Positions 1 to 55,421 are shown, counted from the stretch's first letter. The stretch is 64,000 nucleotides of DNA from Dehalococcoidia bacterium (GCA_041653995.1 JBAZEK010000001.1:1184747-1248746), one strand, 5' to 3'. The notes: generated by a model not told the origin, from the letters alone. Made by a program: numbers and translations.

Positions 1-3000
1 CTTTCCTTTATCTTGAGGGCGTTCTTGACCGCCATCGAGCAGCAGATGCGGCTGCAGTAGGCCCTTTCCTCGTTGCGCGAGCCGGCGCACTGCACCATCA
101 CCACGTTCTTGCCCGCCCAGGTCGAATCATCCCGGCTCAAACGCTTCTCCAGCTCAAGCTGAGTGATCACCCTGCCGTCCTTCCCGTACAAATATTCCCG
201 GGCCGCGGCCGGCTCGGCGCCGGTGGCCACGATGATGGCGCCGCAGGAGACCTTGATGTCTTTGGCATCCTGGAAAATGGTCGCTTCGAACTGCCCAATA
301 AAGCCGGATACGCCGGTCACGTCGGCGTTCAGATGCATGACGATGTTGGGACTCTCCTCCACCTGCCTGACCAGGCCGGCGACAAATGGTTGAATGTCCT
401 CGTGCTCCAGCGTGTAATTCAAATCGAGCGCGTTGCCGCCCAGCCTGCCGGACTTCTCCACCAGGTGCACTTTGAAGCCCTGACCCGCCAGCGCCAGCGC
501 GGCGGTCATGCCGCTCACGCCGCCGCCCATTACCAGGCCCGTCTGGTCCACGGCAAAGGTGGTGCCGGTCAGCGGCGCCAGCAGCCTGGCCCGCGCCACC
601 GACATCTTCATAAGCTGTATGGCTTTATTTGTGGCCTGCTCCGGCTCGGCGGAGTGCACCCACGAGCACTGGTCCCTGATGTTGGCCAGCTCGAATAGAT
701 ACGGGTTGAGGCCGGCCTCCCTCAGCGTCTCGCGGAAAATGGGCTCGTGCGTGCGCGGCGTGCAGGACGCCACCACCACACGGTTGAGACGGTGCTTGTG
801 TATCATGTCATGTATGTTGTTGAGACTGGAATCGGCGCAGGTGTACATGGTGTGCGTGGCGAAGACCACGCCCGGCAATTGCGCTGCGGCCTGCGCTACC
901 TTCTCAACGTCCACCACCGAGGCGATGTTCTTGCCGCAGTGGCAGACGAACACGCCGATCCTGGGCTGCTCGTCGGTTACATCGTGCTCCTCCGGGTAGA
1001 CCGGTTTGCTGATCAATGAGTTGCGCGCCTCGGCCAGCAGCTCCATCGACAGCGAAGCCGCCGCGCTGGCCTGCGTCACGGTCTCGGGTATGTCCTTTGG
1101 CTCCTGGAAGGCCCCGGCCACGTACACACCGGGACGCGAGGTCTCAAGCGGCGATAGCCGGTCGGTGGAGCAGAACCCGTACTCGTTCAGATCGATGCCC
1201 AGGCGTAAGGCGGCCTCCCCGGCATCTTTGCCGGGCTGCATGCCCACCGAGAGCACGACCAGGTCGAACTCCTGCTCCTGCATTTCGCCATCGTCGGCAT
1301 AATATTGCAAACGCAGGTCGCCCGTGCCCGGAACCTGCAGGACGCGCGAAGGCATGCTCCTGATGTAATTTATATTTCCGCTGCTCCTGGCGCGCTCGTA
1401 ATACTGGTCGAAGTCCTTGCCGTGGGCGCGGATATCCATGTAGAAGATCGCGCACTGCAGCCCGGCCGCGTGGTCGGACGCCACCAGCGCCTGCTTGGTG
1501 GAGACCATGCAGCAGACCGAGGAGCAGTAGCCGCTGCCGCACTTCTCGTCGCGCGAACCCACGCACTGTATCCAGGCGATGCGATGCGCCTCTTTACCGT
1601 CGGAGCGCCGTACGACGCGACCCTCGAAGGGGCCGGAGGCCGACAGCATACGCTCGAACTGCACGCTGGTCAGGACGTTGGCATAGCGGCCGAAGCCGAA
1701 CTCGCCCTTCTTCTCCGCCGGAAACTCCTCGAAGCCCGGCGCCAGTATGACCGAGCCCACCTCCAGTTTGACCTCGCGCTGCCCCATGTAATGGTCTATG
1801 GCGTTCTGCTCGCAGGCGCCCACGCACTCACGGCACTCGGAGCACAATGCGCAGTTTAAACAGCGCTCGCTCTCGGCCAGCGCAGCATCTTCACTCAGTC
1901 CACCCTCGGTCTCATCAAAATTGCCGCTCCGCTGAGCGGCTGGCAAATATTCCGGCACGGCCCGCGCGACCTTCCGCTTCCCGGAGATATCCGGCAGCAG
2001 GTCCTCGGGCAGCGGTCTTACCGTATCCTCGAAACGGCCGCCGCGCAGATCCTGGCTCTTCAAATAGCGGTCGATGGACTCCGCGGCCTTCTTGCCCGCG
2101 CCCACCGCCTGTATGATGGAAGCGGGTCCCGACACACTGTCGCCGCCGGCGAATATACCCGCCGCCGAGGTCTCAAACGTCACGGGATCGATCTTGAAGC
2201 AGCCGCGCTCGATGTCCAGCCCGGCGGCGCCGATGAAGCCTTTGTCCAGCGCCTGCCCGATGGCGATGATGACATGGTCGGCCTGTATCGTCCTCAGCTC
2301 CTTTTCATCGTAGGCCGGGCAGAAGCGCCCCTCGTTATCAAATACGCTGGCGCAGCGTTTCAATTCGATGCCGGTTACTGATCCCTCACCAAGTATGCGG
2401 CGCGGTCCCCAGCCGTTGGTCACCGTGATGCCTTCCGCAAGCGTGTCGGCGACCTCCTCCGGCAGGGCCGGCATCTCGTCCCTCTGCTCCAGCGCTACCA
2501 TCTCCACGCTCTCCGCGCCCAGGCGCAACGCCGTGCGCGCCACATCCACGGCTACGTTGCCGCCGCCTATCACGACCGCCCTGCCGCTAACTTCAGGCGG
2601 ATTACTCACATCGGCCGCCCGCCTGAGAAACTCCACACCGTAATCTATGCCCGCCAGGTTCTCGCCTTCCAGGCCCAGCCTTCGGCTGACCTGCACGCCC
2701 ACGCCCACAAAGACCGCGTCATTGTCCTGCCTGATCTTGCCGAACTCGATTTCTTTGCCGATACGGCAACCGTATTTAAAGGCAACGCCTTTGCGGCGGA
2801 TAAGCTCCACTTCATAATCGAGAATATTCTTGGGCAGGCGGTACCCGGGTATGCCCCAGCGCAGCATGCCGCCCGCGGCGGAAGACGCCTCGTAAACGGT
2901 AACGGCATAACCTCGATCAGCCAGGTCGGCGGCTGCCGTCAATCCGGCCGGTCCGGCCCCGATCACGGCCACCTTCTTCGCGCCCGGCGGGGGCGTCTTC

Positions 3001-3747
3001 TCCTCGGGCAGGGCTATCTGCCCGGACTCCACCAGCTCCATCTCACGGTCGGAGGCGAACTTTTTAAGCAGTCGTATTGCGACCGGCTCGTCCAGGTTGC
3101 CGCGCGTGCAGACGGCCTCGCAGGGATGGTTGCAGGCGCGCCCGCAGATGGCGGAAAGCGGGTTCCGCTCCCGTATCAGGTTGACCGCCTTCACGTACTC
3201 CTTCTTCTTGATCAGCTGTATGTAGCCCTGCACATTGATATTGGCCGGGCAGGCTACCTTGCAGGGCGCGTGTCCGTTTTTCAGTATGCCGAAGATGTTG
3301 GGCGTGGCCTGGGCGTAATGCTTGGCGATGGCCTTGCGCGTGCCCATCTCGCGATCAAAGTGGTTGGGCACGTCGACCGGACAGACATCGGTGCACTGCT
3401 CGCAGGCTGTGCACTTAGACTCGTCGACGTAGCGGGGATAGCGCCTGACCGTGGCGGTGAAGCTGCCCGGCTCGCCCTGCAGGTCGGCCAGCTCAGACAG
3501 GGTCAGTATCTCCACGTTGGGGTTGCGCGCGCATTCCACCAGCTTGGGCGACACTATGCAGGTGGCGCAGTCGCCGGTGGGGAATGTCTTGTCCAGGTGC
3601 GACATCATGCCGCCGATGGCGGCCAACCGCTCCACCAGGTAGACCTTGAAGCCCGACCCGGCCAGGTCCAGCGCCGCCTGTATGCCGGCGATGCCTCCGC
3701 CCTGCACCAGCACCGCGCCCGTCTTTTTCTTTATATCTTCACCCATA
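1..3747 (-). CDS. hdrA: Giant HdrA-like FAD/Fe-S flavoprotein, 3'-partial (runs off the window start). It has two HdrA-type modules and an embedded GltD/NfnB-like NAD(P)H-binding domain.
   Basis: Manual minus-strand translation from ATG 3747: MGEDIKKKTGAVLVQGGGIAGIQAALDLAGSGFKV (HdrA FAD fingerprint). VAVIGAGPAGLTAAADLADRGYAVTVYEA (GltD-like Rossmann domain, verified at 2941-2973). WIQCVGSRDEKCGSGYCSSVCC (HdrA Cys cluster, verified near 1521-1570). A second VMGGGVSGMTAALALAGQGFKV and VMVQCAGSRNEERAYCSRICCS follow. The frame is continuous to position 1. The plus-strand ORFs here are antisense shadows. Confidence 0.8.
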
Positions 3748-3760
3748 TCACAGTTACCTT

Positions 3761-4633
3761 TTACGTTCCTTTTGAGCCCAGGGCCTGAAGCACCGCATCC
3801 GGCGGCGCCATCAACCTGTTCAATCCCAGCTCCCCGGGACCTATACCCAGGCATAACCCCAGTAATTGTGTTATGTAAACTATGGGCAGGCGGCCTTTTC
3901 CCGCACCGCCCTTCATCTCGTTCTGCCTGAGGTCGAGGCTGGCCTGGCACATGGGGCAGGCCACGGCGATGCAGTCGGCGCCTGAGGCCCTGCCCATATC
4001 TATAATAGAGTTCGACAGCCGCACCACCACATCGGTGCGCGTCAGGTTCAGTCCTCCCCCACAGCAGTCCACCTTGCAGGACCAGTCCACTCCTTCTCCA
4101 CCCATGGCCTCCACCAGACGATCGAGCGACGTCGGGTTCTCCGCGTCGTCGAAGCCGGTGATGTCGTGGGGACGCACCAGCAGGCACCCGTAGTAGCTGG
4201 CGACCTTCAGGCCGTTGAGCGAGCGAGCCAGCCTTTTCTTCAGATTCGGAATGCCGACATCCTCCAGCAGCACCTCGATCAAATGCCGTACGGCCACCGA
4301 CCCGTCGTAGGGTCTTCCCACAGCTGCGGCTACCTTGTTACGCATGTCCGGCGAGGACGACACCTCATGGTTGGCGGCTTTCATGCGGCTGTAACAGGCC
4401 GCGCAGGTCACCACCGTATCCAATCCCATCTCCTTCGCCAGCAGCAGGTTGGCGGCGGGCAGTGACGCGGCCAGCACGCGGTCGGTCTGGTGGGCGGCGG
4501 TCGCCCCGCAGCAGGACCAGCCGTCTATCTCGACCAGCTCGATGCCCAGCGCGCGCGCCACGGCCGTGGCCGATTCGTGCATGTCGCGCGCCGTGGAATG
4601 CGAGGAGCATCCCGGATAATATGCGTACTTCAT
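3761..4633 (-). CDS. hdrB: Heterodisulfide reductase subunit B (two CCG domains)
   Basis: N-terminal MKYAYYPGCS is typical of HdrB. Cys-rich CCG motifs (CCGG, CPMC). Located immediately upstream of the HdrA-like gene. Confidence 0.85.
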   Translation of the reverse strand: MKYAYYPGCSSHSTARDMHESATAVARALGIELVEIDGWSCCGATAAHQTDRVLAASLPAANLLLAKEMGLDTVVTCAACYSRMKAANHEVSSSPDMRNKVAAAVGRPYDGSVAVRHLIEVLLEDVGIPNLKKRLARSLNGLKVASYYGCLLVRPHDITGFDDAENPTSLDRLVEAMGGEGVDWSCKVDCCGGGLNLTRTDVVVRLSNSIIDMGRASGADCIAVACPMCQASLDLRQNEMKGGAGKGRLPIVYITQLLGLCLGIGPGELGLNRLMAPPDAVLQALGSKGT

Positions 4634-5139
4634 TTCGTCTTACTCTTTACCCCGGCGGTATTTTCGAAGATGCGCCGCACGGTTTTTTTATCGGCGCCCG
4701 AGGGAGGAAGAATAGCCATCTTGCCCTTTCCCAGCATAGCGGGGAATTTCTCCGCATCGTCCATGATCTTGCCGCTGCCCAGCTTGTATCCCATAATCAT
4801 GGACAGGTCGTAGGAGCGGCCGAAGATCTTCACATTCTGCAGGAACATGCGGTTGAAGAGAGGCATGTCTCCCTTCGGCGCCTTAATGCCTTTTGCGATG
4901 GAAAGGCTGCGCAGGGTGTCGATAACGGCGGGGAAGTTGATCTGCATGGGACAGCGGCCGTAGCAGGTCTCGCAGGACAGGCACATCCATACCAGCCCGC
5001 TTTGCAGCAGCTCGTCGCCGGCCCCCAAATGGAGGCGCCTGATAATCTCGGAGGGCGCCGATCCGGCCGGCCCCGCCACCGGACAGCCTGCAGAACACTT
5101 CCTGCACTGGTAGCAGGTGTCCAGTTTTACGCCGGACAT
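4630..5139 (-). CDS. hdrC: Heterodisulfide reductase subunit C (2x[4Fe-4S] ferredoxin). The ORF extends to 5199, but an internal ATG at 5139 has a better SD (AGGTGG-N5-ATG).
   Basis: CxxCxxCxxxCP motifs (CYQCRKCSAGCP, CLSCETCYGRCP). Located upstream of hdrB, with a 4-nt overlap. Confidence 0.8.
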   Translation of the reverse strand: MSGVKLDTCYQCRKCSAGCPVAGPAGSAPSEIIRRLHLGAGDELLQSGLVWMCLSCETCYGRCPMQINFPAVIDTLRSLSIAKGIKAPKGDMPLFNRMFLQNVKIFGRSYDLSMIMGYKLGSGKIMDDAEKFPAMLGKGKMAILPPSGADKKTVRRIFENTAGVKSKTK

Positions 5140-5221
5140 CTCTTCCACCTGCGGCCTGATTCCGGCTGTTCGTCTCTTTTTGCTTATCACAATCGTCATA
5201 TCAGTACACCATTACCCGTTA

Positions 5222-7879
5222 CTATTCTCCGGTCGACACGGTCAGCAGTTCCGTCTCGGTGAGCGCCGCAGAATCCGACTTCTTGCCCAGTGCGGCGACC
5301 CTGACCGGGGCCACCTTGCGGTAGACCTCCGAGGGTTTGAGCAGCCGGCCGTCCACCGTCAGCAGGTCTTCGACCCTGATGCCGAAAAGCCGCTCGTTCT
5401 CCTGCAGGTACGGCAGGATCAGCTGCCAGTCTTCGTCCGTCATGCGGTAGAACCCGCAGCCGTTCAACTGCTGCCAGACGACCTGCTGGCGCGGATCGCG
5501 GATATAGATGGCGCCGCCCGAGGCCAGCGAAAAGAGGTTGCTTCCGGGATACGGCTCTTTAAGCGCCTGCAGGCGTCCCTCATCGTCGAAGGCCACGCCG
5601 TTGAGTATGACGAAGCCGCCGCCGTTAAATACGTCACCGGCCATGAATGACTCCCCCAGGAAATCGAGGCAGGTGCCGTTGATGACGACCCTGGGCCTGC
5701 CCACCGAATTGATGAGGGGCCTGCCGGCGGCGTTGCCCATGACGTAGACCGATCCACCCTTGGCGCCGTACATGAAAGTCTGGCCCACGTCGCCGTGAAT
5801 GACCAGTACGCCGCTCTTGATGATCTGCCCCACCTGGTCCTGGGCATTGCCGTGCACGTTGATGGTCAGGCCGTCGATACCTGAGGCCAGGTAATCGCCG
5901 GAGCTGCCGTATACGTCGATGGTCGCATCGTCCGAGACGGGTCCCAGCCCGCAGCCGATGAAGCGCTGCCCGCTGCAGTTGTAGCTGATAAAGCGCCGCC
6001 ATCCTATGTTGTAGGCGTCCATTAACAGGCTGGCATCGCTTCCCAGTCCTTCCGCATCGAATCCCCGCGCGTTGATCACCAGGACGGCCTCGCCGTTGCG
6101 GGGTGGCCGCAGCAGGCCGTGCGTATTATGGTCGATCAGGCGATACCCGCCGTTCCCGTCCTTATCACCATCAAGCCCGGGAAGGCCGTCGAAGACCTGA
6201 CGCAGCGCACCGCGCACCAGATGGATGACATGGTTGCGCTTTTTGGCGCCGGCAGGATACCTGCGGTCGTTGAGCAGCGTGAGCACTTCAATGGTCGGCG
6301 CGGTGTACCTGCGGTCGGCGGCAATCTCGACAATTGCAGACAGCGCGGAACGCGTGTCGTCGAATGACCACTGCCCCATGCCGCCGGACAGGTGTGCGAA
6401 AACGGCCGCAGCGTCACCCTTCTCAAATAGCTGCGTCAGCCTGTCCCTGACATGGCCGTTGGATGACCTGACTGAAGCGGAGAAATCGCAGGATTCCGTT
6501 GCCGACGGCAGGGGCACAGGTGCGCCGAACTTGTCCGTGCAGGAGATGCGCAGGCGTCCGCCGCTGTCCGGCTTGAGGTCGAAAATGAAGGCGCCGCCGT
6601 CCGTATGGCTGCCGCCCCTGGCGTTCCAGTAGCGGTCGGCAACCGGGCAGATGCGGCTGTCATCCGCATGCAGGCTCTGCAGCGTGGCGTCGATGGCCTG
6701 CTTCTCGGAGGCTATCAAACCCACCTGCACATCGCCGTCGCAGAAGGCGAAGACCTGCGGCCGCAGCATGGCGGTGTCCGTGATGCCCATCAACTGAAAG
6801 GCCCGGCTCTCCGGCAGCGAGCGCGCGATGATGAAGAACCAGGGCCCGTCGGGCGAGCCGTGGATATGTGCGGTCTGGATGGCGCGGTATATAGATTGCC
6901 TGTCCTGCGGAAGCCGATCGAAATCAAGCTCGGAGGTGGGCGCCAGAGCCTCGATAATATATTCCAGCGGGTATCCGTAGGTCCGCTGCAGCAGGTCGAA
7001 CATCAAGATGGAAGCCTCGGTATCGGTGAGGAACTGCGGATGTATATGCCGCTCGGCCAGGTATTCGCACACCGAATGGTAGTTGGCGAAGTCGCCGTTA
7101 TGCACCAGGGCGGCATTGATACCGCCGAAGGGATGGGCGCCGCCGGGATGCCAGACACGGCCCTTGGTGGGGAAGCGCTGGTGCGCTATCCACACGTGGG
7201 CGCGCAGCTCCTCGATCTTATAGTACTTCACGATGGCCTCGGCATAGCCGACCACCTTGAGTATCATGATGTTCCTGCCCTCGGACATAACAAAAGCCTT
7301 CTGCTCGCCCAGCGACGCGTAATATTCCTGGTTGAGCCGCACGCTGTTCTGGTTGATAAACTCCGCCTCCGCCGCTTCCCGCGGCAGGCTATTAAGTTTG
7401 TTCTTCTCAATGAAGGCATCCAGCGCGTCCGCCCTGGCGCGCACAAAATAGCGGTAGACGTCGGGAGGCCTGGCCTCTAAGCCCTCGACCGCCGTCCAGT
7501 CGTCCACGGTATCAAGCCTCTGCCTCGCCCTGACCTCAAAATAAGGCGTGATGTATTTGCCTTCAAGCTCATTCAGTATCCCCGCATCGAGGAAGGCCAC
7601 GTGCAGCATATAGCAATCTTCCAGCACCTCGCGGCTGACCCCGAGTTGCTCGGGCACAAAGCCGAGCGCGGCGATGCCGCCGCCCTTGCCGTTGCCGCGG
7701 TTGTGCATCTGTCTGGACGGCTCGTAGATATGCCTGGCCGCCGCCGGATGCGAGCAGCAGAAGCCTACTACGCCGCAGCCACCCTCCTCCTCGATCTTCC
7801 TGTCGGGCGTGGCAGGTTGCAGCTCGCGCGCCAGCCCGGCGCGTGAGTCCAGCAGACGCTCGATCAACTCTCGTTTCAT
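5222..7879 (-). CDS. Glutamate synthase-like protein: a class-II glutamine amidotransferase domain fused to a GltS C-terminal GXGXG (beta-helix) domain
   Basis: Ntn-type GGCGVVGF catalytic Cys region lies about 35 aa from the annotated Met. C-terminal GXGXG-repeat region (GSSGDYLASG...GNAQDQVG...GDVGQTF...GNAAGRP) matches GltB domain 3. Confidence 0.75.
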   Translation of the reverse strand: MKRELIERLLDSRAGLARELQPATPDRKIEEEGGCGVVGFCCSHPAAARHIYEPSRQMHNRGNGKGGGIAALGFVPEQLGVSREVLEDCYMLHVAFLDAGILNELEGKYITPYFEVRARQRLDTVDDWTAVEGLEARPPDVYRYFVRARADALDAFIEKNKLNSLPREAAEAEFINQNSVRLNQEYYASLGEQKAFVMSEGRNIMILKVVGYAEAIVKYYKIEELRAHVWIAHQRFPTKGRVWHPGGAHPFGGINAALVHNGDFANYHSVCEYLAERHIHPQFLTDTEASILMFDLLQRTYGYPLEYIIEALAPTSELDFDRLPQDRQSIYRAIQTAHIHGSPDGPWFFIIARSLPESRAFQLMGITDTAMLRPQVFAFCDGDVQVGLIASEKQAIDATLQSLHADDSRICPVADRYWNARGGSHTDGGAFIFDLKPDSGGRLRISCTDKFGAPVPLPSATESCDFSASVRSSNGHVRDRLTQLFEKGDAAAVFAHLSGGMGQWSFDDTRSALSAIVEIAADRRYTAPTIEVLTLLNDRRYPAGAKKRNHVIHLVRGALRQVFDGLPGLDGDKDGNGGYRLIDHNTHGLLRPPRNGEAVLVINARGFDAEGLGSDASLLMDAYNIGWRRFISYNCSGQRFIGCGLGPVSDDATIDVYGSSGDYLASGIDGLTINVHGNAQDQVGQIIKSGVLVIHGDVGQTFMYGAKGGSVYVMGNAAGRPLINSVGRPRVVINGTCLDFLGESFMAGDVFNGGGFVILNGVAFDDEGRLQALKEPYPGSNLFSLASGGAIYIRDPRQQVVWQQLNGCGFYRMTDEDWQLILPYLQENERLFGIRVEDLLTVDGRLLKPSEVYRKVAPVRVAALGKKSDSAALTETELLTVSTGE

Positions 7880-9429
7880 CCGGTTTGCCCCGCATCGTTA
7901 CTGTAGTCGAGGTGCTCGAGCAGATCGGTGCGGCCCCTCAGCTCGCTGACGCTGCGCAGGCCCAGCCTGCGCAGTATGTCGACCAGCTCGATACGCCAGG
8001 CGTTGTAGAGGTTGATCACACGCTGCGAGCCCCATTCCACGTTGAACTGGCCCTGCAGGCCCGGGTCCGTGGTGGCTATGCCGCGCGGACAACCGCGCCC
8101 GCTCTCGCAGCGCGCGCAGCGGACGCAGCCCAGCGCGACCAGCTCCCCCGTCCCTACTACCACACCATCCGCGCCCAGGGCGATGGCCTTGGCGATATCG
8201 TGCGCGTTGCGCAAACCGCCGCTGGCCATCAGAGTTATTTTGTCACGCACGCCCTCACGTGTGAGGAAATCGTGGACCTTGACGATGGCATATTCGATAG
8301 GCATGGCGATATTCTTCTTGGCGATGTCGGGGGCGGCGCCGGTGCCCCCGTATCCGCCGTCCATATGAACGATATGCGCCCCGGCCGAATAGCTCCCCAC
8401 CGCAACCATGTCCACATCGGCGGGGGTGGACACCTTGGCCGAGACCAGCGCATGGCGATTGATATGTTTGATCCAGTCCATGTGTTTCTTATGGTCTTCG
8501 ATGGAATATACGCTGTGGAACGGAAAAGGCGAGAAGAGCGAGATGCCCGTCACCGTTTCGCGCATTTTTGCCACGGCGGGGGTGACCTTATCGGCCAGCA
8601 GGTGGCCGCCCAGACCCGGCTTGGCGCCCTGGGCATATTTGAACTCAACGATGCGCACGCGTTGAATCGTCTCCTCGCGCACGCCGAACAGCCCGGTGGC
8701 GACCTGTGTAATGGTGTGCTCGTCATAGGGCCTCAGCCTCTCCATGTAGCCGCCCTCGCCCGTGCAGGTGAAGGTATTGAAGGCCACGGCGGCCTGCGCC
8801 TTGGAAAGCTGTGTCACGTTGCTGACCGACCCGAAGGACATGCCGCCGCCGTACCAGGGAACATCGATCTTGATCTGCGGCCTCCCGTCTCCCCGCCTGT
8901 TCAGCTCAAGGCTGGTGTCGATCTGGTCCGGCGCTAGGTCGATCGGCGGCACGGCGGGGAATTTGAAGCGCAGGCGGTCGAACCCGCCGCCCGAGTCGCC
9001 GCACTCGTATTGATATCCGTACCCGGGAGCGGGAGGCGCGCCGGTCTCCGCCATCTTCCAGGTGGCAAGTATCAGGTCGGAGGTCCAGCGATGATCGCCC
9101 AGCACCTTCATCATGGGATTTTCCACCATCTTCAACGCGCCGTTGGGGCAGAGGTCCACGCAGTAATGTCCGGTGTCCTTGCACGAGGGCCCGATGCATA
9201 CGTTGTGTCGCGGGTTGGCGAAATACTTGTAGCCGCCCTTGAGCACGTGAACGCCCTGAGGGCACGCCTCGGCGCATTTGCCGCACAGTTTGCAGGCATC
9301 GCTGCGGCGAATAATATATTTGGCGATCTCGTTGCGATAACGCGGCGGCGCCGGCTTGATTACGCGCCGGACCTCGACCTGTGGCACCAGCGTCTCGATA
9401 GTGCTTTGCGGCAGGTCCTGTTCAGCCAT
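7876..9429 (-). CDS. Glutamate synthase FMN-binding (domain 2) protein with N-terminal ferredoxin-like Cys motifs
   Basis: GltS FMN-domain motifs: GGMSFGSVS, KYAQGAKPGLGGHL, ISLFSPFPFHSVYSIED, DGGYGGTGAAP, SGGLRNAHDIAKAIALGADGV, CVRCARCESGRGCP. The start was set to the in-frame ATG at 9429 (MAEQDL), which overlaps the upstream gene's stop. Confidence 0.8.
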   Translation of the reverse strand: MAEQDLPQSTIETLVPQVEVRRVIKPAPPRYRNEIAKYIIRRSDACKLCGKCAEACPQGVHVLKGGYKYFANPRHNVCIGPSCKDTGHYCVDLCPNGALKMVENPMMKVLGDHRWTSDLILATWKMAETGAPPAPGYGYQYECGDSGGGFDRLRFKFPAVPPIDLAPDQIDTSLELNRRGDGRPQIKIDVPWYGGGMSFGSVSNVTQLSKAQAAVAFNTFTCTGEGGYMERLRPYDEHTITQVATGLFGVREETIQRVRIVEFKYAQGAKPGLGGHLLADKVTPAVAKMRETVTGISLFSPFPFHSVYSIEDHKKHMDWIKHINRHALVSAKVSTPADVDMVAVGSYSAGAHIVHMDGGYGGTGAAPDIAKKNIAMPIEYAIVKVHDFLTREGVRDKITLMASGGLRNAHDIAKAIALGADGVVVGTGELVALGCVRCARCESGRGCPRGIATTDPGLQGQFNVEWGSQRVINLYNAWRIELVDILRRLGLRSVSELRGRTDLLEHLDYSNDAGQTG

Positions 9430-10831
9430 TTCTTCTTGTACCAAAGAGTTTGCCAAAGGTTGCCTCCTCGAGTTCCTCAAAGAAAAGCGCCCTGCCCGCC
9501 TCGCCGCGCAGGCGGCGCACATCGCGTATACCCATTGCGCCCATGACCTCTATCAACTGGTCGTGCCATGCGGCGATCAGGTTGGTCATGCGGCCCACGC
9601 CGTAATCCGTATCAATCTCCCTGATGCCGGCCCGGCAGGCCAGGCCGTCGTTGCACTGCCTGCACAGGGTGCACTCCAGGGCTATTAACAAAGGCAGGTT
9701 AACGGAAACCAGGTCCGCGCCGCAGATGATCTGCTTGGCCATGTGCTCGGCCAGCGCGACGCCCCCGCCGGATATCAGCGTGACCTCGTTCCTGATGCCG
9801 CGCTGAACCAGCGACGTATGTATTTGCCGAAACATGTCCTTTATGAACCGCGGGCTGCCGGCGTTAAGCTCGTTGCCGTTGACGTCGGCCACCAGGTGCA
9901 GGGCCTCGATATACGGTTCCCCCGCCAGCTCAATGCTGCGCTCCACGCCTTGCGCATCCAGGTCGATCCTGACCGCCACCACGATAGCGGGATTAACGGC
10001 CTTGAGCTCCGCAATGCGCTGTTCCAGGCCGGCGCCGTCCCCGATCTCCACCAATCTCATTTTCCGCAGCAGTGCGGCAGCAGGCAGAGCCGATGAGGGG
10101 CCGATGTAGGCGGCCAGGCCGGGCAGATACTGCTCCAGGTCGTTGCCCAGCAGGTCCCAGTCGTTGAAATCGACGATGGCGATGGTCCCCGTCTGAGCCG
10201 CAACCACTTTGAAGATGGGCGGCAGATTGGGCAGCCGGTAGCCCTGCGGCATCATATCGATGACCATGGGGATGGGTATGTCCACCAGCGGCGGCAGACG
10301 TCCTTCAAGCGTATTGGTCCCAAATTGCAGCAGGGAGGGTTTCCTGCCGATATCCACGGCCGTGCTGATATACTCGCGGCCGTGTATGCCGTCGCGTGTG
10401 GGACGGACTATCTCCGACATATCGGTCCACATCGAATCGAATCCGGGCCCTGAGAAGGGGCCGCGGTACCCGGCGCCCGAGACAGGGATCCTGGCGGTCT
10501 CCGCCTGCGTCCAGGTCGTCTCTATCATCTGGGGCGTCCAGTAGCCGTTGCCCAATCGCTCATAAACGGGATTCAGCGCGAGCGAAAGCAGGCCCTTGGT
10601 GCACTGCTGCACGCAGGAGAAGCAGCCCATGCACTGGAAAAAGAGGGCGTCCATCTCGCGCAAATCGCGTATATAAGCAGCTTCCTCGCGGTAGCGATCG
10701 AACACGCAGGCACGCTTGACGCAGTTGTGGCAACCGGCGCAGTCCTCGCGCCAGTCGACCACGCCGCACCTGCCTATGCGCGGCCGCCGCGGCGGCACCG
10801 GTCTGGTTTTGATGTGATACTTGTCAGGCAT
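9422..10831 (-). CDS. Divergent paralog of the glutamate synthase FMN-domain protein (N-terminal ferredoxin domain; several FMN motifs are degenerate)
   Basis: N-terminal Cys clusters (CAGCHNCVKRAC, CMGCFSCVQQC). C-terminal ISGGGVALAEHMAKQIICGADLVSV...CTLCRQCNDGLACRAG parallels the downstream gene. The GAKPG/GGTGAAP motifs are not conserved. Confidence 0.6.
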   Translation of the reverse strand: MPDKYHIKTRPVPPRRPRIGRCGVVDWREDCAGCHNCVKRACVFDRYREEAAYIRDLREMDALFFQCMGCFSCVQQCTKGLLSLALNPVYERLGNGYWTPQMIETTWTQAETARIPVSGAGYRGPFSGPGFDSMWTDMSEIVRPTRDGIHGREYISTAVDIGRKPSLLQFGTNTLEGRLPPLVDIPIPMVIDMMPQGYRLPNLPPIFKVVAAQTGTIAIVDFNDWDLLGNDLEQYLPGLAAYIGPSSALPAAALLRKMRLVEIGDGAGLEQRIAELKAVNPAIVVAVRIDLDAQGVERSIELAGEPYIEALHLVADVNGNELNAGSPRFIKDMFRQIHTSLVQRGIRNEVTLISGGGVALAEHMAKQIICGADLVSVNLPLLIALECTLCRQCNDGLACRAGIREIDTDYGVGRMTNLIAAWHDQLIEVMGAMGIRDVRRLRGEAGRALFFEELEEATFGKLFGTRRNG

Positions 10832-10846
10832 ATCTTCTTTCCCCGC

Positions 10847-11749
10847 TTAAAGGGCCATGGATATCAGCGCGGGCACGGCCGATTCGTTGCCCCCGGAAAA
10901 GATGTGTATACCGCGCAGCCCCGGCAGGGCCTTGAGCCTGCCGATCATCTCGGCGCAGATGGCCAGCCCCTCTTTTCGCTGGGCTTCTTCGCCGCCGGCC
11001 GACTCCAGGCGTGTGATCACATCATCCGGAATATTGAAATCCGTGAATGTATCCTTCATCCTCTTCGCTTCAGCCGCGCTGCCGAGCGGCAGTACGCCGG
11101 CCAGGATGGCGGTCTTTTGAGCAATTGCTTCGCCTCTGAGGGTATCGAGCCACAGTTTGAAGTCTTCGATATCGAAGACGGCCTGTGTCTGCAAGAACCC
11201 GGCCCCCGCCCTGATCTTCTTTTTGATGCGCATAACATTGAGTTCGAGCGGCCTGAGCGCCGGATTGGCGGCGGCGCCCGCCAGCATGGAGAAGGGACCT
11301 TCGATCTTGCGCCCGTCCATCAGCAACCCCTCTTCAGCCATAGCATTTACCGCGGCGATGAGCTGGATCGAATCGATGTCGAAGACGCCCGCCGAATCGG
11401 GGCACGCGATGAGGGTCTGATGGTACCCGCTGAGACAGAGAACGTTCTTGATGCCCAGTGAAACTGCGCCGAGCAGGTCGGATTGCAGGGCGATGCGGTT
11501 CCTGTCCCTGGTCACGACCTGATAAACAGGTTCGATACCGGCACGGAGCAGGGTGATGGACGCGGCAAGGCTGGACATGGCCACGCCGTAATGGTTGTCG
11601 GCGACGTTTACGGCAACGGGGCCGTCCCTCAAAGCGGCGGCGCACTCTTCCACAACGCGTGTGCCCGCCCCGGGACGGGGCAGATACTCCGCCGTCAGTA
11701 TGAAATCCGTACCCGCGATTTTCGCGGCCAGTCTGCTGTCAGGTTTCAT
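10847..11749 (-). CDS. metF: 5,10-methylenetetrahydrofolate reductase
   Basis: MTHFR-family sequence over its whole length (FILTAEYLPRPGAG..., QTQAVFDIEDFKLWLD...). About 300 aa. Confidence 0.8.
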   Translation of the reverse strand: MKPDSRLAAKIAGTDFILTAEYLPRPGAGTRVVEECAAALRDGPVAVNVADNHYGVAMSSLAASITLLRAGIEPVYQVVTRDRNRIALQSDLLGAVSLGIKNVLCLSGYHQTLIACPDSAGVFDIDSIQLIAAVNAMAEEGLLMDGRKIEGPFSMLAGAAANPALRPLELNVMRIKKKIRAGAGFLQTQAVFDIEDFKLWLDTLRGEAIAQKTAILAGVLPLGSAAEAKRMKDTFTDFNIPDDVITRLESAGGEEAQRKEGLAICAEMIGRLKALPGLRGIHIFSGGNESAVPALISMAL

Positions 11750-11759
11750 GAGATTACTT

Positions 11760-12200
11760 CTACTCCTTATCGAGCTCCAGCTCGTCGCCCGCGTATGCGC
11801 TGCGCGGCGATGTTTCGATCCTGTTACGGAAGGCTTCCAGCTCTTTTCTGACCTGCTCCACGCCGCCTTCGCCCGGCTGGATCATGACCATGCGCCCGCG
11901 GCCCAGGCCTATCTCCTCCAGCAGGGCATCCACCGCCTCCACCCGTTTTTGAGCGCGCAGGTTCCCCTCGATATAACGGCAATCACCTTTATTACATGTG
12001 ACCACGGCCACTCCGTCCGCGCCGGTCTCGAAGGACTTGGTCAGGTAGAGGATATCGACCTTACCGGAACACGGCAACGGGATCAGCCTGACCTCAATCC
12101 CCTGCATGCTATCTCCTCCCGACAGCTCGGACGGATCCAGGCTGCTTGAGCAGCAGAAGAGATCGATCTTGACCCTGGCCTTATTTGCTACGTACATTTC
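11760..12200 (-). CDS. mvhD: MvhD/FlpD-like (methyl-viologen-reducing hydrogenase delta subunit family) Fe-S protein. The start was chosen at an internal ATG with an AGGTGG SD.
   Basis: MvhD pattern: KIDLFCCSSS...PCSGKVD...GADGVAVVTCNKGDCRY. Compare MvhD CNWCSY...MCSGRVD...GADGVLVSGCHPGDCHY. Confidence 0.75.
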   Translation of the reverse strand, partial: EMYVANKARVKIDLFCCSSSLDPSELSGGDSMQGIEVRLIPLPCSGKVDILYLTKSFETGADGVAVVTCNKGDCRYIEGNLRAQKRVEAVDALLEEIGLGRGRMVMIQPGEGGVEQVRKELEAFRNRIETSPRSAYAGDELELDKE

Positions 12201-12307
12201 ATGCCACCTATACGGCTTATGGAAGCCTGTTGCCGTATTATAGCAGCACAATATGGGGCTGTCAAAATCTTTTGTCACAAATTTGCCGCAAGGCAAGCTG
12301 AAAATGG

Positions 12308-12362: not shown

Positions 12363-12719
12363 TTAATACCTTCTCGAGCCGCCTCTGCCGCCGCCGTAGC
12401 CTCCGCGCTGGCCGAAGGAGGACTTGCCTCCACGACCACCGCCGCCGCCGCTGCGTCCGCCGCCACCGCCGCCCTCTCCTCTCGGTCGGGCGCCGTTGAC
12501 GGTGATGGCACGTTCCTTTAGCTTCTTGCCGTTCAGTCCGGCGATGGCCGCCTGGCCTTCCTGCAATTTGGGCATCTCCACAAATCCGAAGCCTTTGGAT
12601 TGCCCGCTGTAGTTGTCCTTGATAATGGCAACAGACGAGACCTCGCCGAAGGCTTCGAACTCAGTCCTGATGTCGCTCTCGGTTACCTCGTAAGCCAGGT
12701 TCCCCACGTATATATTCAT
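12363..12719 (-). CDS. Glycine-rich RNA-binding protein (single RRM domain with a Gly/Arg-rich tail)
   Basis: RNP-1/RNP-2 motifs (IYVGNL, KGFGFVEM) followed by a GGGGGGRSGGGGGRGG tail. Confidence 0.85.
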   Translation of the reverse strand: MNIYVGNLAYEVTESDIRTEFEAFGEVSSVAIIKDNYSGQSKGFGFVEMPKLQEGQAAIAGLNGKKLKERAITVNGARPRGEGGGGGGRSGGGGGRGGKSSFGQRGGYGGGRGGSRRY

Positions 12720-12794: not shown

Positions 12795-13091
12795 TTACCT
12801 TCTGGGATTTATGGTGCTATAGCAATCGCTGCAGTAAACCGGTTTGTCCTGTCGCGGCTCGAAGGGGACCTCGGTCTCTTTGCCGCACTGTGCGCACTGC
12901 GCGGGGTACATCTTGCGCTGGTAGCCTGACCTGCCGCCGTCGCGGCTTGATTTCCTGGCCTGCCTGCAATCGGGGCAGCGTTTGGGCTCATTGGCGAACC
13001 CCTTGGATGCGTAGAACTCCTGCTCCGTCGCGGTGAAGGTGAAATCCTTGCTGCAATCCGCGCAGTTGATAGTTTTGTCGGTGAAACCCAT
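12795..13091 (-). CDS. Small zinc-ribbon protein (two CxxC pairs, then a second CxxC...CxxC)
   Basis: CADC...CPDC and CAQCG...CSDC. A complete ORF with a strong AGGAGG SD. Located upstream of the RRM gene. Confidence 0.55.
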   Translation of the reverse strand: MGFTDKTINCADCSKDFTFTATEQEFYASKGFANEPKRCPDCRQARKSSRDGGRSGYQRKMYPAQCAQCGKETEVPFEPRQDKPVYCSDCYSTINPRR

Positions 13092-20673: not shown

Positions 20674-22464
20674 ATGAGTAATAGTGACGACATACTCAAG
20701 AAAGTTGAGCTGGACAAATGCCGCGAGGACCTGGTCCTGCTGCAAAGCCGTTTCAAAGTCGGAGAGATCGGAAGCGACGTATTTGATTCCGAGAGCAAGA
20801 TACTGCTCAATAAAATAAGTCTGCTGGAAAAAGAAGTAAATAAAATACCCCTCTCCGCGGGCGATAAATTTAAAAAGCACCGGGCGCTCATCGTGATTAT
20901 AGCCGCTGTGGCGCTTGGCCTGCTTCTTTGCGCAACGGTGATACTGCTGGTGCCGAGGTCGGGCACAGACGTAGGCAATATAGCCCCCGACTTCGTAATG
21001 CAGCTCACCGACGACAACACCACGGCGCTCAGCTCTTTCCGCGGTAAAAATGTCGTGCTGGTTTTCTGGGACAGGGATTTCTGGGACGATAACTTCTTCA
21101 GCGTAAACGGCGTGGTGCGCAGGCTTTACACGCCGGATAAGCTCAACGAGCTCTTAAAAAAGTATCCTGAGGGCGATCTGACTATTATCGCCATCGCCTC
21201 GGGCGCCGGCAGCAGCGAGATAGATGACCTGATAAAGAAGTACGATATAGCATTCCCGGTCATCAGCGACACTTCAGGCAAGCTTCGTTCAAGCTACAAC
21301 ATATCGTATGAGCCCACCTGTGTTTTTCTGGATAAGAACGGTATCATCAGGGCCAGGGTGGAAGGCCCCATCACAACCATATCCGATTATGAACAGATCA
21401 TCCACGCTGCCGGCAGCGGCCGCAGCATTAATAATTCGCAAGCACCCATAATGAACGTGCTTGTCCAGTCCAACAACGAGAAAAGCGCCATGGTGACCTG
21501 GAGTACCTTGCTCCCGGCCACCACACAGGTCGATATTGACGGCAAGAATATACAAACAGTTATAACGCCCGCTCCGGTCACCCTCCACTCGCTCAGTATT
21601 AATGACCTGTCCCCAAATACCTCCTACCATATCAGGATTTTATACAACGTGAATTACATCAACGTTTCGGAACACTCCTATGACGCGCTGGCCGATACGA
21701 TAGTCTCGAAACGCTATCTGGCCACGACTTCGGGAACGGATTCGAGCTATCCGGAGATATCAGGAGCCGGGACCAGTTCGATTACGGATTCATCTATACT
21801 GGTAACATGGAAAACCGACGAGCCCGCCGGCGGTGAAGTCGATTTCAGCATCGGCAGCGATATTCTGGGCACAGAATCCCAGGGAGACCGTCCGACAATC
21901 TGGCATACGGTCAAGCTCGATAGCCTTATGCCGGATACGGAGTATCGTTTAAAGATCAGATCAAAGGACACCAGCGGCAAGGAGTCTACTCAGGACCTGC
22001 CGTCGGTCAAGACGCTGAGCATGGTTGAGACGGCTCCCCAGGTGGGCAAACGGGCGCCTGACTTTATCCTGAAATCTTTAGACGGCACGGAGTATTCCGT
22101 GAGCCAGTTCCAGGGCCGCAACGTCATGCTGAATTTCTGGCTGGAAGGCTGCCGCGCCTGCGAGCTCGAGATGCCAATTATTCAGACAGCTTACAATAAA
22201 TACGGCCGCGACGAGCTTGCCGTTTTGGCAGTCAACGTGCGTGGAGACGCCGACAAGGTCAAATACTTCGTCGCCAATGAGAGATTATCGTTCCCCGTGC
22301 TGATGGACAGCGACGGCCAGGCGGATGCCCTCTACAAGGGGCCAGCCTTCCCCACCACATTCTTTATCGACTCCACCGGCATTATCCGGGAGATCAAGAC
22401 CGAACGTTTCCAGACCCTCAGCGAGATCGATGACTCATTGTCCAAATTAGACTGCTGCAAATAG
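20674..22464 (+). CDS. Large membrane-anchored double-redoxin: N-terminal cytoplasmic coiled coil, one TM helix, a degenerate TlpA-like domain (no CxxC), two FN3-like beta-sandwich domains, and a C-terminal TlpA-like domain with a CRAC active site
   Basis: First thioredoxin-fold region VVLVFWDRDFWDD lacks Cys. Repeats ...MVTWSTLLPATTQVDIDG... and ...ILVTWKTDEPAGGEVDFSIGSD... are FN3-like. C-terminal NVMLNFWLEGCRACELE. Confidence 0.65.
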   Translation: MSNSDDILKKVELDKCREDLVLLQSRFKVGEIGSDVFDSESKILLNKISLLEKEVNKIPLSAGDKFKKHRALIVIIAAVALGLLLCATVILLVPRSGTDVGNIAPDFVMQLTDDNTTALSSFRGKNVVLVFWDRDFWDDNFFSVNGVVRRLYTPDKLNELLKKYPEGDLTIIAIASGAGSSEIDDLIKKYDIAFPVISDTSGKLRSSYNISYEPTCVFLDKNGIIRARVEGPITTISDYEQIIHAAGSGRSINNSQAPIMNVLVQSNNEKSAMVTWSTLLPATTQVDIDGKNIQTVITPAPVTLHSLSINDLSPNTSYHIRILYNVNYINVSEHSYDALADTIVSKRYLATTSGTDSSYPEISGAGTSSITDSSILVTWKTDEPAGGEVDFSIGSDILGTESQGDRPTIWHTVKLDSLMPDTEYRLKIRSKDTSGKESTQDLPSVKTLSMVETAPQVGKRAPDFILKSLDGTEYSVSQFQGRNVMLNFWLEGCRACELEMPIIQTAYNKYGRDELAVLAVNVRGDADKVKYFVANERLSFPVLMDSDGQADALYKGPAFPTTFFIDSTGIIREIKTERFQTLSEIDDSLSKLDCCK

Positions 22465-28142: not shown

Positions 28143-28410
28143 GGGCCGTGCACCGGCCTTCGATAGTGTCCTTCAGCTTGCTTCCGCCAGCCGGCTCCGG
28201 CCAGGTGACCCTGCGTCACCCGGAGTTCACTATTTACCGCTGCTTCCTTCCGGACCTGACGGGATTCATAGCCCTCCGCCGCGCAAGACCCAACCTTCAA
28301 CACCGCTTAACAGTTGTAGTTCTGAAAAACAAAACCTCGAGCCGGGATTCAGCCCCGCTATAGCGGATCTCGGGTACAGGGCACCGCTGGTTCCCCGCCT
28401 AGCACGGCCC
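28143..28410 (-). ncRNA. ffs: Signal recognition particle RNA, large (Bacillus-type, about 268 nt) form
   Basis: Minus-strand sequence contains GUCAGGUCCGGAAGGAAGCAGC, the SRP RNA domain IV consensus (identical to the E. coli 4.5S core). The 5' GGGCCGUGC and 3' GCACGGCCC termini pair as a closing helix. Lies in a 330-nt intergenic gap. Confidence 0.8.
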
Positions 28411-47991: not shown

Positions 47992-50253
47992 ATGGCAGCT
48001 GACAGTTCACATATACGACGGCAAGCTGCGCGCAGCGGATTCACTCTGTGCGAGGCTATAATACGGTCGTTCTCCCGGCTATCGATCAAAGAGGGCGCGC
48101 CCTGGCGCACACTGCTGGCCGTTTCGGCCAACTCTCAGGCCGTGGTTGAGGCGGCCCTGCTTGCGGCCAGGCAGGCGGAATGCCCCATATTTTTCGCAGC
48201 TACGCTCAACCAGGTCGACATCGATGGGGGCTATACTGGTTGGGATCATGCGAGCTTCGCTACCCTGGTACGGCGCACTGCCGGAAAAACGGATTTCAAA
48301 GGCCCCATTCTGCTCGGGGTAGACCATGCCGGACCCTGGCTGCGCGACAGGCACACCAGTGAAAAATGGCCTTACAGCCGTACAATGAAAGCGGTCGAAA
48401 TATCTCTGGAATCGGCTATTGCAGCAGGATTCGACCTGCTTCATATCGATCCCACCGTTGACCGGGGCCTTCATCCCGGCGGAACACTGCAACTTAACAC
48501 GATCATTGACAGGACCGTCCAGCTGATCAAGCACTGCGAGTCCTTCCGCATCAAACACAGACTGCCCCCGGTGGCATACGAGGTAGGCACCGAGGAGGTC
48601 AAGGGCGGGCTGGCAGATGAAAACATGTTCAGCAATTTCCTGTCTGGCCTGCGTATAAGGATGACGCAGGAAGGACTGAGCCGGGCATGGCCGTGCTTTA
48701 TCGTGGGTAAAGTTGGAACGGACCTGGACACGACCCTGTTCAGCCCGCAGATGGCGCAGGAGCTTTATGATATCGCACGCCACTATAACCTGGTGCTGAA
48801 GGGACATTACACCGACAACGTGGAAAATCCGGTCGCCTACCCGGCCAGCAGAATGGGGGGCGCCAACGTCGGACCCGAATTTACCGAAGTCGAATGCGAT
48901 GCCCTTTTCGAGCTTGAATCGAGGGAAAAGTCTGCCCATGTCAGGAACGCTGCAGAGCCTTCGATATTTAAAGAATCTCTCGCACAGGCTGTGATCCGGT
49001 CCGGCAGATGGCGTAAATGGCTTCACCCGGAGGAGGCCGGCAAGCCGTTCGACGCGCTACCCGCCGAAAGGCAAAACTGGCTGCTCAAGACAGGCGCGCG
49101 CTACATCTGGACGGACAGGAAGGTAAGGGAAGCGCGCAAACGCCTGTATGCAAATCTGGTAAAAGACGGTTTCGATCCCCACCGGTATGTGGTCGAGCGC
49201 ATCTCGCAGCAGATATTGAAATACTTCCGCGCCTTCAACCTGTATGGCTCAATCCCCGTGCTTGAAAAGGAATTCGAGCGGCGCAGAAGGCTCCCGTTCT
49301 GGGACGAAGGGCAGGTGCTGGCCGCGGGAGAATTGATCGTAGAGATCATGCGCCCGTCGGTGGACATGCCTCTGGATACAACCGGACGATTCGTGGGGCC
49401 ATTCCCCAGCGGCGCACCCGCCATCTTCGCGGATGCCTCCGCGCGTATAGGGAAACGGACAGGCTTTGTGGGTTCGCTGGGACAGGACGGCTTCGGCCGT
49501 CTGCTACTGAGTAGGTTCACGAATGACGGCATTGACCACAAACTCATAGCTTCAATCAAGGGCCGGCCCACGGGCTGCGCCTTTGTGGCCTATGACAGGG
49601 ATGGCGGGCGTAACTTTATCTTTCACATCGCGGGCACCGCCTCCGACCGCCTGCCTTCTATCTCACGGGCCGTGAAATATGCAAGGTCTTTCCGCCACCT
49701 GCACCTTATGGGCTGCTCGCTCTCCATAAGCAGCGCCATAAGAGAAGCCTGTATGGCGATGGCGGAGGCTATCAAAGAGTCTGGCGGCAGCGTCAGCCTC
49801 GATCCCAATTTACGGCCGGAATTGCTCTCAGCCGGGGAGTGCAGAAACATACTGTTGCCCGTTGTTCGCCTGGCAGATATCGTTCTTCCCAGCGGGAACG
49901 AGGCCGGCCTGCTGGTGCATGAACCCGATATCGATACTGCCTGCCTCCGCCTGATCGAGTTGGGAGTGAAGATCGTGGTGCTTAAAAAAGGCGACAGCGG
50001 CTGCCGCGTGTTCACCCGCGAATCCACCTTCGACGTCCCAGGTTTCAAAGTAAATGCCGTCGACCCCACCGGCGCGGGCGACTGCTTCGATGCCGGTTTC
50101 ATCAGCGGCTACCTCGATAATCTGCCGCTTTACGAGACAGCCAGACTGGCCAATGCCATGGGCGCTCTGGCCGCATCCAGACTGGGACCGATGGAGGGCG
50201 CCTTCAGCCTCAACGAGGTTATGAACTTTATAAAAAAACAGCGGCGGGATTAA
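47992..50253 (+). CDS. Fusion protein: an N-terminal GatZ/KbaZ-family domain (tagatose-bisphosphate aldolase non-catalytic subunit / AgaZ) and a C-terminal PfkB-family carbohydrate kinase
   Basis: N-terminus aligns with E. coli GatZ (ATLNQVDIDGGYTGW, GVDHAGPW, GFDLLHIDPT, YEVGTEEV). C-terminus has the PfkB signature DPTGAGDCF and a GG dipeptide region. Confidence 0.7.
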   Translation: MAADSSHIRRQAARSGFTLCEAIIRSFSRLSIKEGAPWRTLLAVSANSQAVVEAALLAARQAECPIFFAATLNQVDIDGGYTGWDHASFATLVRRTAGKTDFKGPILLGVDHAGPWLRDRHTSEKWPYSRTMKAVEISLESAIAAGFDLLHIDPTVDRGLHPGGTLQLNTIIDRTVQLIKHCESFRIKHRLPPVAYEVGTEEVKGGLADENMFSNFLSGLRIRMTQEGLSRAWPCFIVGKVGTDLDTTLFSPQMAQELYDIARHYNLVLKGHYTDNVENPVAYPASRMGGANVGPEFTEVECDALFELESREKSAHVRNAAEPSIFKESLAQAVIRSGRWRKWLHPEEAGKPFDALPAERQNWLLKTGARYIWTDRKVREARKRLYANLVKDGFDPHRYVVERISQQILKYFRAFNLYGSIPVLEKEFERRRRLPFWDEGQVLAAGELIVEIMRPSVDMPLDTTGRFVGPFPSGAPAIFADASARIGKRTGFVGSLGQDGFGRLLLSRFTNDGIDHKLIASIKGRPTGCAFVAYDRDGGRNFIFHIAGTASDRLPSISRAVKYARSFRHLHLMGCSLSISSAIREACMAMAEAIKESGGSVSLDPNLRPELLSAGECRNILLPVVRLADIVLPSGNEAGLLVHEPDIDTACLRLIELGVKIVVLKKGDSGCRVFTRESTFDVPGFKVNAVDPTGAGDCFDAGFISGYLDNLPLYETARLANAMGALAASRLGPMEGAFSLNEVMNFIKKQRRD

Positions 50254-51968: not shown

Positions 51969-52013
51969 TAAGATCTCCTCCATTATTTATGTTTATTATT
52001 TATAAGTGTGCTG

Positions 52014-55407: not shown

Positions 55408-55421
55408 CTCAGCATCCTTCA

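Follow-up and report, generated by a model that had tools for sequence, protein, structure and literature searches.

A 64,000-nucleotide stretch of a Dehalococcoidia bacterium genome (GCA_041653995.1, JBAZEK010000001.1:1184747-1248746; hereafter "the window") encodes, one directly after the other on the minus strand, two proteins that each join a ferredoxin domain to a barrel of the glutamate synthase (GltS) type. The downstream protein, G2cat (7876-9429, 517 aa), is identified as a catalytic synthase subunit by Pfam and by alignment to GltB. The upstream protein, G2deg (open reading frame at 9422-10831, 469 aa), combines a ferredoxin domain with a signature motif, a (beta/alpha)8 barrel of reduced size and a cluster of four cysteines. 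It is chiefly through glutamate synthase that nitrogen enters biomass, and the enzyme's architecture is considered well known. Here we propose that G2deg is probably a conserved subunit that is non-catalytic for glutamate synthesis, and that it serves as an Fe-S adaptor and scaffold within a split, anaerobe-type glutamate synthase (GOGAT). A first-pass annotation of the window had described the two genes as paralogs and had suggested that the upstream copy is a pseudo-enzyme subunit, acting as a structural or electron-transfer partner. That suggestion is supported by the loss of catalytic motifs, by purifying selection, by invariant cysteines, by coupling and fusion to G2cat, and by a link to electron donors. 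To it we add an eight-gene operon, a motif specific to the family, and a probable position within the GltS fold.

G2deg and G2cat are homologous from end to end, with a BLASTP match of E 3e-27 at 24% identity and a family-profile alignment (hhalign) of E 2e-44 over 434 columns. In both, a two-cluster ferredoxin domain is combined with a GltS-type barrel and a four-Cys cluster. The proposed paralogy of these adjacent genes thus holds over their full length. G2cat matches the Pfam Glu_synthase profile (PF01645) over positions 58-368 of 369 (E 2.8e-90), aligns to residues 857-1171 of Azospirillum brasilense GltB (E 9e-54) with all synthase motifs present, and is 40% identical to the FMN (flavin mononucleotide) domain of Escherichia coli GltB. 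Its motifs include KYAQGAKPGLGG (residues 264-275, nt 8605-8640), SPFPFHSVYSIEDH and DGGYGGTGAAP (residues 357-367, nt 8329-8361), and its cluster cysteines are C435, C438, C441 and C447. G2deg, in contrast, matches the same profile over positions 251-368 only (E 4e-12, 46.4 bits against a cut-off of 20.4), a match that is shared by all 70 of the homologs compared. Its resemblance to GltB itself is weak (profile search E 8e-6, aligned to residues 976-1163 of the A. brasilense protein).

The regions missing from G2deg are those that hold the cofactor and the substrate. In the hhalign alignment, the columns of G2deg opposite KYAQGAKPGLGG, SPFPFHSVYSIEDH and DGGYGGTGAAP are occupied by gaps or unrelated residues. 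Across the whole G2deg family the motifs GMSxG, GEGG, QVAxGRFG, KxxQGAKPGxGG, SPxxHxDIYSIED and GGTGAxP are deleted or replaced, whereas all of them are kept in G2cat, and the beta4-alpha4 substrate loop, about 45 residues long in G2cat, is cut to a few residues. These deleted or replaced columns agree with the first-pass annotation, which had listed KxxQGAKPG, GGTGAAP and other FMN and substrate motifs as lost from the upstream copy, and which had named conserved but shifted FMN-binding residues as the result that would speak against it. In three independent alignments we found no shifted copies of the FMN or synthase motifs in G2deg. G2deg is therefore a paralog of G2cat in which the synthase motifs have been lost and not displaced. 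It keeps just two elements of the catalytic motifs, namely a basic residue at beta5 (R288, where the synthase has Lys) and the Gly-rich beta7 loop. Also retained, as the annotation had noted for the SGGG..ADLVSV segment, is ISGGGVALAEHMAKQIICGADLVSV (residues 353-377), with the beta7 loop and helix ISGGGVALAEHMAK and the GAD...V strand.

The potential Fe-S ligands have fared differently from the FMN and substrate motifs. The ferredoxin-like domain of G2deg (10592-10750, minus strand) contains two cysteine motifs, C31-x2-C34-x2-C37-x4-C42, in which the last spacer is four residues, and C67-x2-C70-x2-C73-x3-C77. All eight of these cysteines are invariant in the 70 homologs and also in 102 proteins in which a G2deg half is naturally fused to a G2cat half. 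The barrel-associated cluster (9635-9673, minus strand), which the annotation had listed as retained, has the form C387-x2-C390-x2-C393-x5-C399 and stands at the position of the ligands of the GltS [3Fe-4S] cluster, where it lines up with both GCIMVRQCHSNTCP in A. brasilense GltB and the CxxCxxCx5C motif in G2cat. It too is invariant in the 70 homologs, so that every one of the 12 Fe-S cysteines is conserved throughout this set; among the 102 fusion proteins nine of the 12 are invariant, and the other three (C378, C381 and C384) are at least 90% conserved.

G2deg is widespread and is maintained by purifying selection. More than 7000 homologs with a length of 466-471 aa were found, and 246 representatives match at E <1e-30 in a library of 1.84 billion representative proteins. 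The ratio of nonsynonymous to synonymous substitution rates (dN/dS) is 0.12 for G2deg (three orthologs), similar to the values for the neighbouring G1G3, MetF and HdrB genes, and 0.05-0.07 for G2cat. Within G2deg, constraint is strongest in residues 1-165 (0.05-0.07), intermediate in the C-terminal part (0.10-0.14) and weakest in the barrel core, residues 166-320 (0.22-0.24).

The two paralogs also travel together. The annotation had proposed examining the pair in related genomes, and we found G2deg directly before G2cat in 80 of the 80 related loci retrieved. These loci span five phyla, and include Dehalococcoidia and other Chloroflexota, Smithella, Syntrophorhabdus and other Desulfobacterota, Pirellulales/Phycisphaerae/Sedimentisphaerales, Verrucomicrobiota, and Spirochaetota. 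The reading frame of G2cat spans 7876-9522; the conserved start codon within it, an ATG at 9429-9427, gives the 517-aa protein and overlaps the stop of G2deg (ATGGCTGA). The overlap is 8 nt (extrapolated) in 60 of 73 evaluable loci and 4-11 nt in 72 of the 73. In another large family the coupling goes further, with both proteins joined in a single chain of about 990 aa, G2deg half first (more than 120 clusters among the matches listed). Altogether, the version of the enzyme with a duplicated synthase subunit was found in at least 579 species-level genomes from five or more phyla. NCBIfam holds no family for G2deg, and database names for it are merely "ferredoxin" or "glutamate synthase-related protein". 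In the searchable full-text literature, whose coverage is incomplete, we found no description of an operon combining GltS, MvhD, MetF and Hdr genes, or of a degenerate synthase-like subunit.

The genes around the pair point to both its metabolic setting and its partners. On the minus strand of the window, positions 1-12296 form a single tightly packed string in the order mvhD, metF, G2deg, G2cat, G1G3, hdrC, hdrB, hdrA. The complete colinear set of eight is present in 57 of the 80 loci, the others being interrupted by contig ends or frameshifts; metF lies directly upstream of G2deg in 76 loci, and the giant hdrA downstream of hdrB in 53. In two relatives (L089, 1-22955, and L091, 1-22991) the fusion version is embedded in a nitrogen-assimilation locus, ntrC-amtB-glnK-amtB-glnK-glnA-mvhD(-metV-metF)-fusion-G1G3, followed in L089 only, not in L091, by asnB-nadE-carBA. 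Genes for sigma54 activators, P-II, Amt and NrpR-like proteins recur upstream among the 80 loci. Because the G2cat motifs are conserved, the glutaminase cysteine of G1G3 is invariant and relatives lie inside amtB-glnK-glnA loci, the module formed by G2deg, G2cat and G1G3 is best regarded as a GOGAT.

The donor side of the module varies. In all variants examined, the gene directly upstream of the G2deg-type gene encodes MvhD or MetF: in some variants MvhD is immediately upstream without MetF, and in others the order is glnA-mvhD-metV-metF-G2deg. In one locus (L082, 10001-17867) a GlcD-like FAD dehydrogenase with an Fe-S domain is fused N-terminally to the G2deg-type domain, and G2cat and G1G3 follow; we speculate that this module could be fed directly by a 2-hydroxyacid dehydrogenase, with D-2-hydroxyglutarate, lactate or glycolate as possible substrates. 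Neither the MetF-like protein nor HdrBC is universal among the variants. MetF was rejected as an obligatory partner, being missing from L083, L084 and L091, and so was Hdr, since no hdr genes lie near L086/L087, L089 or L091; with none near the nitrogen loci L089 and L091, the Hdr link is optional. Since these variable donor modules are fused to or adjoin G2deg, it would be the donor-facing subunit of the enzyme, and this position together with three conserved cluster sites makes an Fe-S relay the simplest role for it.

These observations can be assembled into a model. G2deg would have been born by duplication of a ferredoxin-fused synthase subunit such as G2cat, and would then have shed the FMN and 2-oxoglutarate machinery while keeping its Fe-S sites, a pair in the ferredoxin domain and a third at the barrel. 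G2deg and G2cat would form a 1:1 pair, with the G2deg barrel placed between the glutaminase and the synthase barrel. The clusters of G2deg would pass electrons from partner redox modules (in the window MvhD, the MetF-like protein and HdrABC with its GltD-like NAD(P)H module) to the FMN of G2cat, where 2-iminoglutarate, formed with ammonia from the glutaminase, would be reduced to glutamate. In its proposed relay role G2deg would resemble the Fe-S modules of GltD and NfnB/DPD. These modules, among them GltD, the beta subunit of NADPH-dependent GltS, act as an Fe-S relay that supplies the synthase subunit's cluster and FMN with electrons (PMC8097209). Yet they are of unrelated fold, GltD being an FAD/NADPH protein, and G2deg has no nucleotide-binding domain. 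The module also shares features with the archaeal-type split glutamate synthase, in which the FMN subunit likewise is fused to a ferredoxin domain and carries a 4-Cys cluster, as G2cat does, and in which the glutaminase and beta-helix are encoded separately from the synthase. It differs in that glutaminase and GXGXG domain are here fused, in that the degenerate subunit is obligatory, and in its linkage to MvhD, MetF and Hdr genes. Classical archaeal split glutamate synthase operons are not known to contain a degenerate paralog.

If G2deg is a scaffold, where in the enzyme might it sit? AlphaFold2 (AF2) predicts a full but compact eight-stranded barrel of about 200 residues (residues 186-385; 9677-10276, minus strand; pLDDT 75-96), which lacks the beta4-alpha4 loop and keeps the GGG loop of beta7. 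The alignment behind this model was shallow, with sequences of 65% identity or more, and the model is good for the barrel and unusable for the N-terminal half. The best Foldseek matches of the barrel are GltS alpha chains (6s6s, 2vdc, 1ea0, 1llw, 1ofd), followed by FMN- and IMPDH-type barrels. The central domain of GltS is a non-catalytic, alpha/beta-barrel-like domain that adjoins the FMN barrel and lines the ammonia tunnel, and it is thought to stem from a duplication of the FMN barrel (PMC8097209). A model of one member of the fusion family, built from 102 sequences (pLDDT 83.8, pTM 0.88), aligns to GltS alpha chains over about 960 columns in Foldseek (E 3e-26, TM 0.50 normalised to the query); its superposition on GltS alpha of A. 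brasilense takes in 603 residues, enough for two barrels. As about 400 of the aligned residues are attributable to the catalytic half, the remainder would represent the G2deg half lying on the region that precedes the FMN domain, that is, on the central domain. Thus, on the evidence of these predicted models, G2deg probably occupies the place of the canonical GltS central domain. The fusion has a degenerate barrel followed by an FMN barrel, in the same order as GltS; unlike the central domain, G2deg is a separate polypeptide, possesses all eight strands, and bears a C-terminal Cys cluster and an N-terminal ferredoxin domain.

Several points weigh against the proposal that G2deg is a non-catalytic Fe-S adaptor and scaffold in the central-domain position. 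First, the equivalence to the central domain derives from the aligned length of a predicted model, not from a residue map or an experimental structure, and at the sequence level hhalign pairs G2deg with the FMN domain (E 4e-8), the central domain (residues 598-673 of E. coli GltB) giving no significant match (E 0.12). The PF04898 central-domain profile scores 17.5 bits against G2deg, under its cut-off of 22.8, with weak matches in 29 of 70 family members. Second, the ferredoxin domain of G2deg scores below the Pfam gathering cut-offs (Fer4_9, 22.5 against 27 bits; Fer4_10, 19.4 against 25.5), and the barrel cluster motif is changed in some distant relatives, for example P0139. The sub-threshold Fer4_9 and Fer4_10 matches are seen in 69-70 of the 70 family members. 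Third, we infer from sequence that the clusters are occupied, that flavin is absent, which way electrons flow, and that G2deg serves as a scaffold or in the tunnel. Fourth, G2deg retains the GGG loop, H363, K366 and, where beta5 had Lys, R288, and it is possible that it uses them to bind a phosphate or flavin-like ligand. Finally, a Cys-free motif, SEIVRPTRDG...RE, hints at a function beyond wiring.

The first of these points led us to reject orthology of G2deg to the central domain at the sequence level, as the significant match is to the FMN domain alone. Because G2deg resembles the FMN domain and not the central domain, we read it as the product of an independent or less eroded duplication: it may be a positional and functional counterpart of the central domain that arose from a separate, or a far less eroded, copy of the FMN barrel.

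The last two points raise the possibility that G2deg has been neofunctionalised, with its barrel face or its SEIVRPTRDG...RE loops binding a cofactor or substrate of its own (a flavin held in a mode other than that of GltS, or a phosphorylated ligand) for a second chemical or regulatory step. The signature segment (residues 116-165; 10337-10486, minus strand) includes WTDMSEIVRPTRDGIHGRE and is invariant in the 70 homologs and the 102 fusion proteins. The Cys-free motif IPVSGAGYRGPFxGPGFDxxWTDMSEIVRPTRDGIHGRE (residues 115-153; 10373-10489, minus strand) is the best-conserved part of G2deg, with S139-G148, R152 and E153 invariant even in relatives at 26-65% identity. Profile alignments reveal no counterpart of it in G2cat or GltB. 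In the otherwise confident fusion model this motif has low AF2 confidence, as do the ligand-binding loops of the catalytic half, and it may form a partner interface, a tunnel interface or a ligand site. Universal conservation of the GGG loop, R347, H363 and K366, and the presence of R288 in place of the lysine at flavin N1, would also fit a ligand-binding role. On the other side, the catalytic-face residues D192, E262, R288 and H312 vary across the wider family, and the barrel core is the least constrained region of the protein. Six of about eight FMN-contact elements are gone, the substrate loop is deleted, and neither Pfam nor NCBIfam families suggest any other activity. We therefore regard a new catalytic or regulatory function as unlikely, if still worth considering.

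A second alternative keeps the central-domain position but not the relay. G2deg would then be a purely structural stand-in, a scaffold and ammonia-tunnel wall whose Fe-S clusters are structural relics off the electron path, and electrons would enter through the ferredoxin domain of G2cat. The superposition of both barrels on GltS alpha is what such a stand-in would give, G1G3 is without any conserved region resembling the central domain, and G2cat has a complete ferredoxin domain and 4-Cys cluster of its own. However, the 12 cysteines of G2deg are invariant across phyla, and its Fe-S-bearing N-terminal part is the most constrained. Moreover, the donor modules are fused to or adjoin G2deg, not G2cat. 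These features make a purely structural role improbable, more so than a gain of new function.

It is also conceivable that the whole module is a GltS-like enzyme of another reaction, such as an amine exchange like that of N-methylglutamate synthase, which is likewise assembled from GltS-type domains, or a reaction of a different 2-oxoacid, tied to C1 metabolism through MetF. The tight linkage of the MetF-like gene, accompanied in relatives by MetV, would agree with this. Yet G2cat keeps all GltS motifs and is 40% identical to E. coli GltB, G1G3 has an invariant glutaminase nucleophile, relatives sit within amtB-glnK-glnA loci, and MetF is missing from some variants, so that we consider a different reaction very unlikely. 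A G2deg without function, either a duplicate in decay or a product of faulty annotation, as the loss of its catalytic motifs might suggest, can be dismissed with near certainty: we rejected a decaying pseudogene on its dN/dS of 0.12 and its conservation, the length being kept in more than 7000 homologs, all 80 of 80 loci, drawn from five phyla, having the gene in colinear order, and a large family carrying it in frame with G2cat.

The downstream and upstream members of the operon allow a further, more tentative proposal about energy coupling. In Moorella thermoacetica, mvhD, metF and hdrCBA are encoded together and specify a MetFV-HdrABC-MvhD methylene-tetrahydrofolate reductase complex, whose HdrA is the presumed bifurcating flavoprotein (PMC5736913; PMC6085437). 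The window also has mvhD, metF and hdrCBA together; it differs in that MetV is absent, that three GltS-type genes stand between metF and hdrC, and that HdrA contains a GltD-like insert. The operon might thus encode an Hdr-coupled glutamate synthase that bifurcates or confurcates electrons at a flavin, a reading that we consider doubtful. If it does, the strongly exergonic reduction of 2-oxoglutarate and glutamine would be the high-potential branch that funds an endergonic one, either reduction of ferredoxin by NAD(P)H or reduction of NAD(P)+ by methyl-tetrahydrofolate via the MetF-like subunit, and G2deg would be a dedicated Fe-S arm joining MvhD and HdrA to the synthase.

These results describe a widespread glutamate synthase of anaerobes. 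Its synthase subunit exists as one active copy and one degenerate copy with Fe-S sites, and modules of the MvhD, MetF and heterodisulfide-reductase types are tied to it. Should the adaptor role of G2deg hold, the enzyme would point to unexplored electron routes into nitrogen assimilation in energy-limited anaerobes, one of which may conserve energy, and MetF/Hdr-type complexes, whose second substrate is still being sought, would gain a candidate partner reaction. If its central-domain position is correct, G2deg would be a little-eroded "living intermediate" for the origin of the GltS central domain from a duplicated FMN barrel, and would give testable support to that old idea.

The remaining genes of the operon, all on the minus strand, are as follows. 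G1G3 (5222-7879, 885 aa) fuses a class-II (Ntn) glutamine amidotransferase to a GXGXG beta-helix (Pfam GATase_6 and GXGXG, with beta-helix matches to FwdC and ferredoxin-dependent GltS). Its nucleophile, Cys35, comes after a 34-residue propeptide, and the motifs GGCGVVGF, HNGDFANY and TDTE are invariant in 57 loci; residues 440-590 are poorly conserved. Upstream of G2deg lie a flavoprotein of the MetF-like methylenetetrahydrofolate reductase (MTHFR) family (10847-11749, 300 aa; Pfam MTHFR E 4e-26, with NCBIfam and distant Protein Data Bank MTHFR matches) and an MvhD-like [2Fe-2S] connector with a FlpD domain (11760-12296; Pfam FlpD E 1.5e-25, NCBIfam VhuD/HdrA2 matches), the start codon of which is uncertain. 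No MetV gene (PF12225) is present in this cluster, and one is found in relatives L086, L087 and L089. Downstream of G1G3 are an HdrC-like subunit with two [4Fe-4S] sites (4630-5199) and an HdrB-like subunit with two CCG domains (3761-4633), both assigned by Pfam and NCBIfam, and then a giant HdrA-like flavoprotein (1-3746), truncated at the edge of the window. Within HdrA is embedded a GltD/NfnB-like module (Fer4_20 and Pyr_redox_2; Pfam), so that a homolog of the classical GltS beta subunit shares an operon with the GltS genes.

The operon region (1-12000) has a GC content of 0.61-0.63, compared with 0.50-0.58 elsewhere in the window (12001-64000), and across five phyla the gene order of the operon is conserved, with amino-acid identities of 60-90%. 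This contrast and the cross-phylum colinearity suggest that the whole module has moved by horizontal transfer. Three loci from Leptospirales and Spirochaetota genomes (L049, L065 and L067) contain, upstream of the operon and on the opposite strand, a further G2cat-like gene that is more distant (35-37% identity); it is found at around 4.5-5.6 kb in these loci. Just upstream of the operon in the window are genes for a glycine-rich RRM RNA-binding protein (12363-12719, minus strand) and a small zinc-ribbon protein (12795-13091, minus strand), which recur upstream in 6-7 related loci, including L004 and L005, most likely the closest Chloroflexota relatives.

Elsewhere in the window, a tRNA scan found no tRNA genes in the 64 kb, and Rfam identified a bacterial large SRP RNA at 28146-28407 (minus strand, 190 bits). 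A 596-aa protein encoded at 20674-22464 (plus strand) combines two AhpC/TSA peroxiredoxin domains with an fn3 domain, and a 753-aa protein at 47992-50253 (plus strand) is a fusion of a GatZ/KbaZ-like domain with a PfkB kinase. Finally, seven tandem reading frames of 547-575 aa occupy 50280-62484 on the minus strand; the three that were scanned are AMP-binding, acyl-CoA synthetase-like proteins, which suggests a tandem array of paralogs of unusual length.

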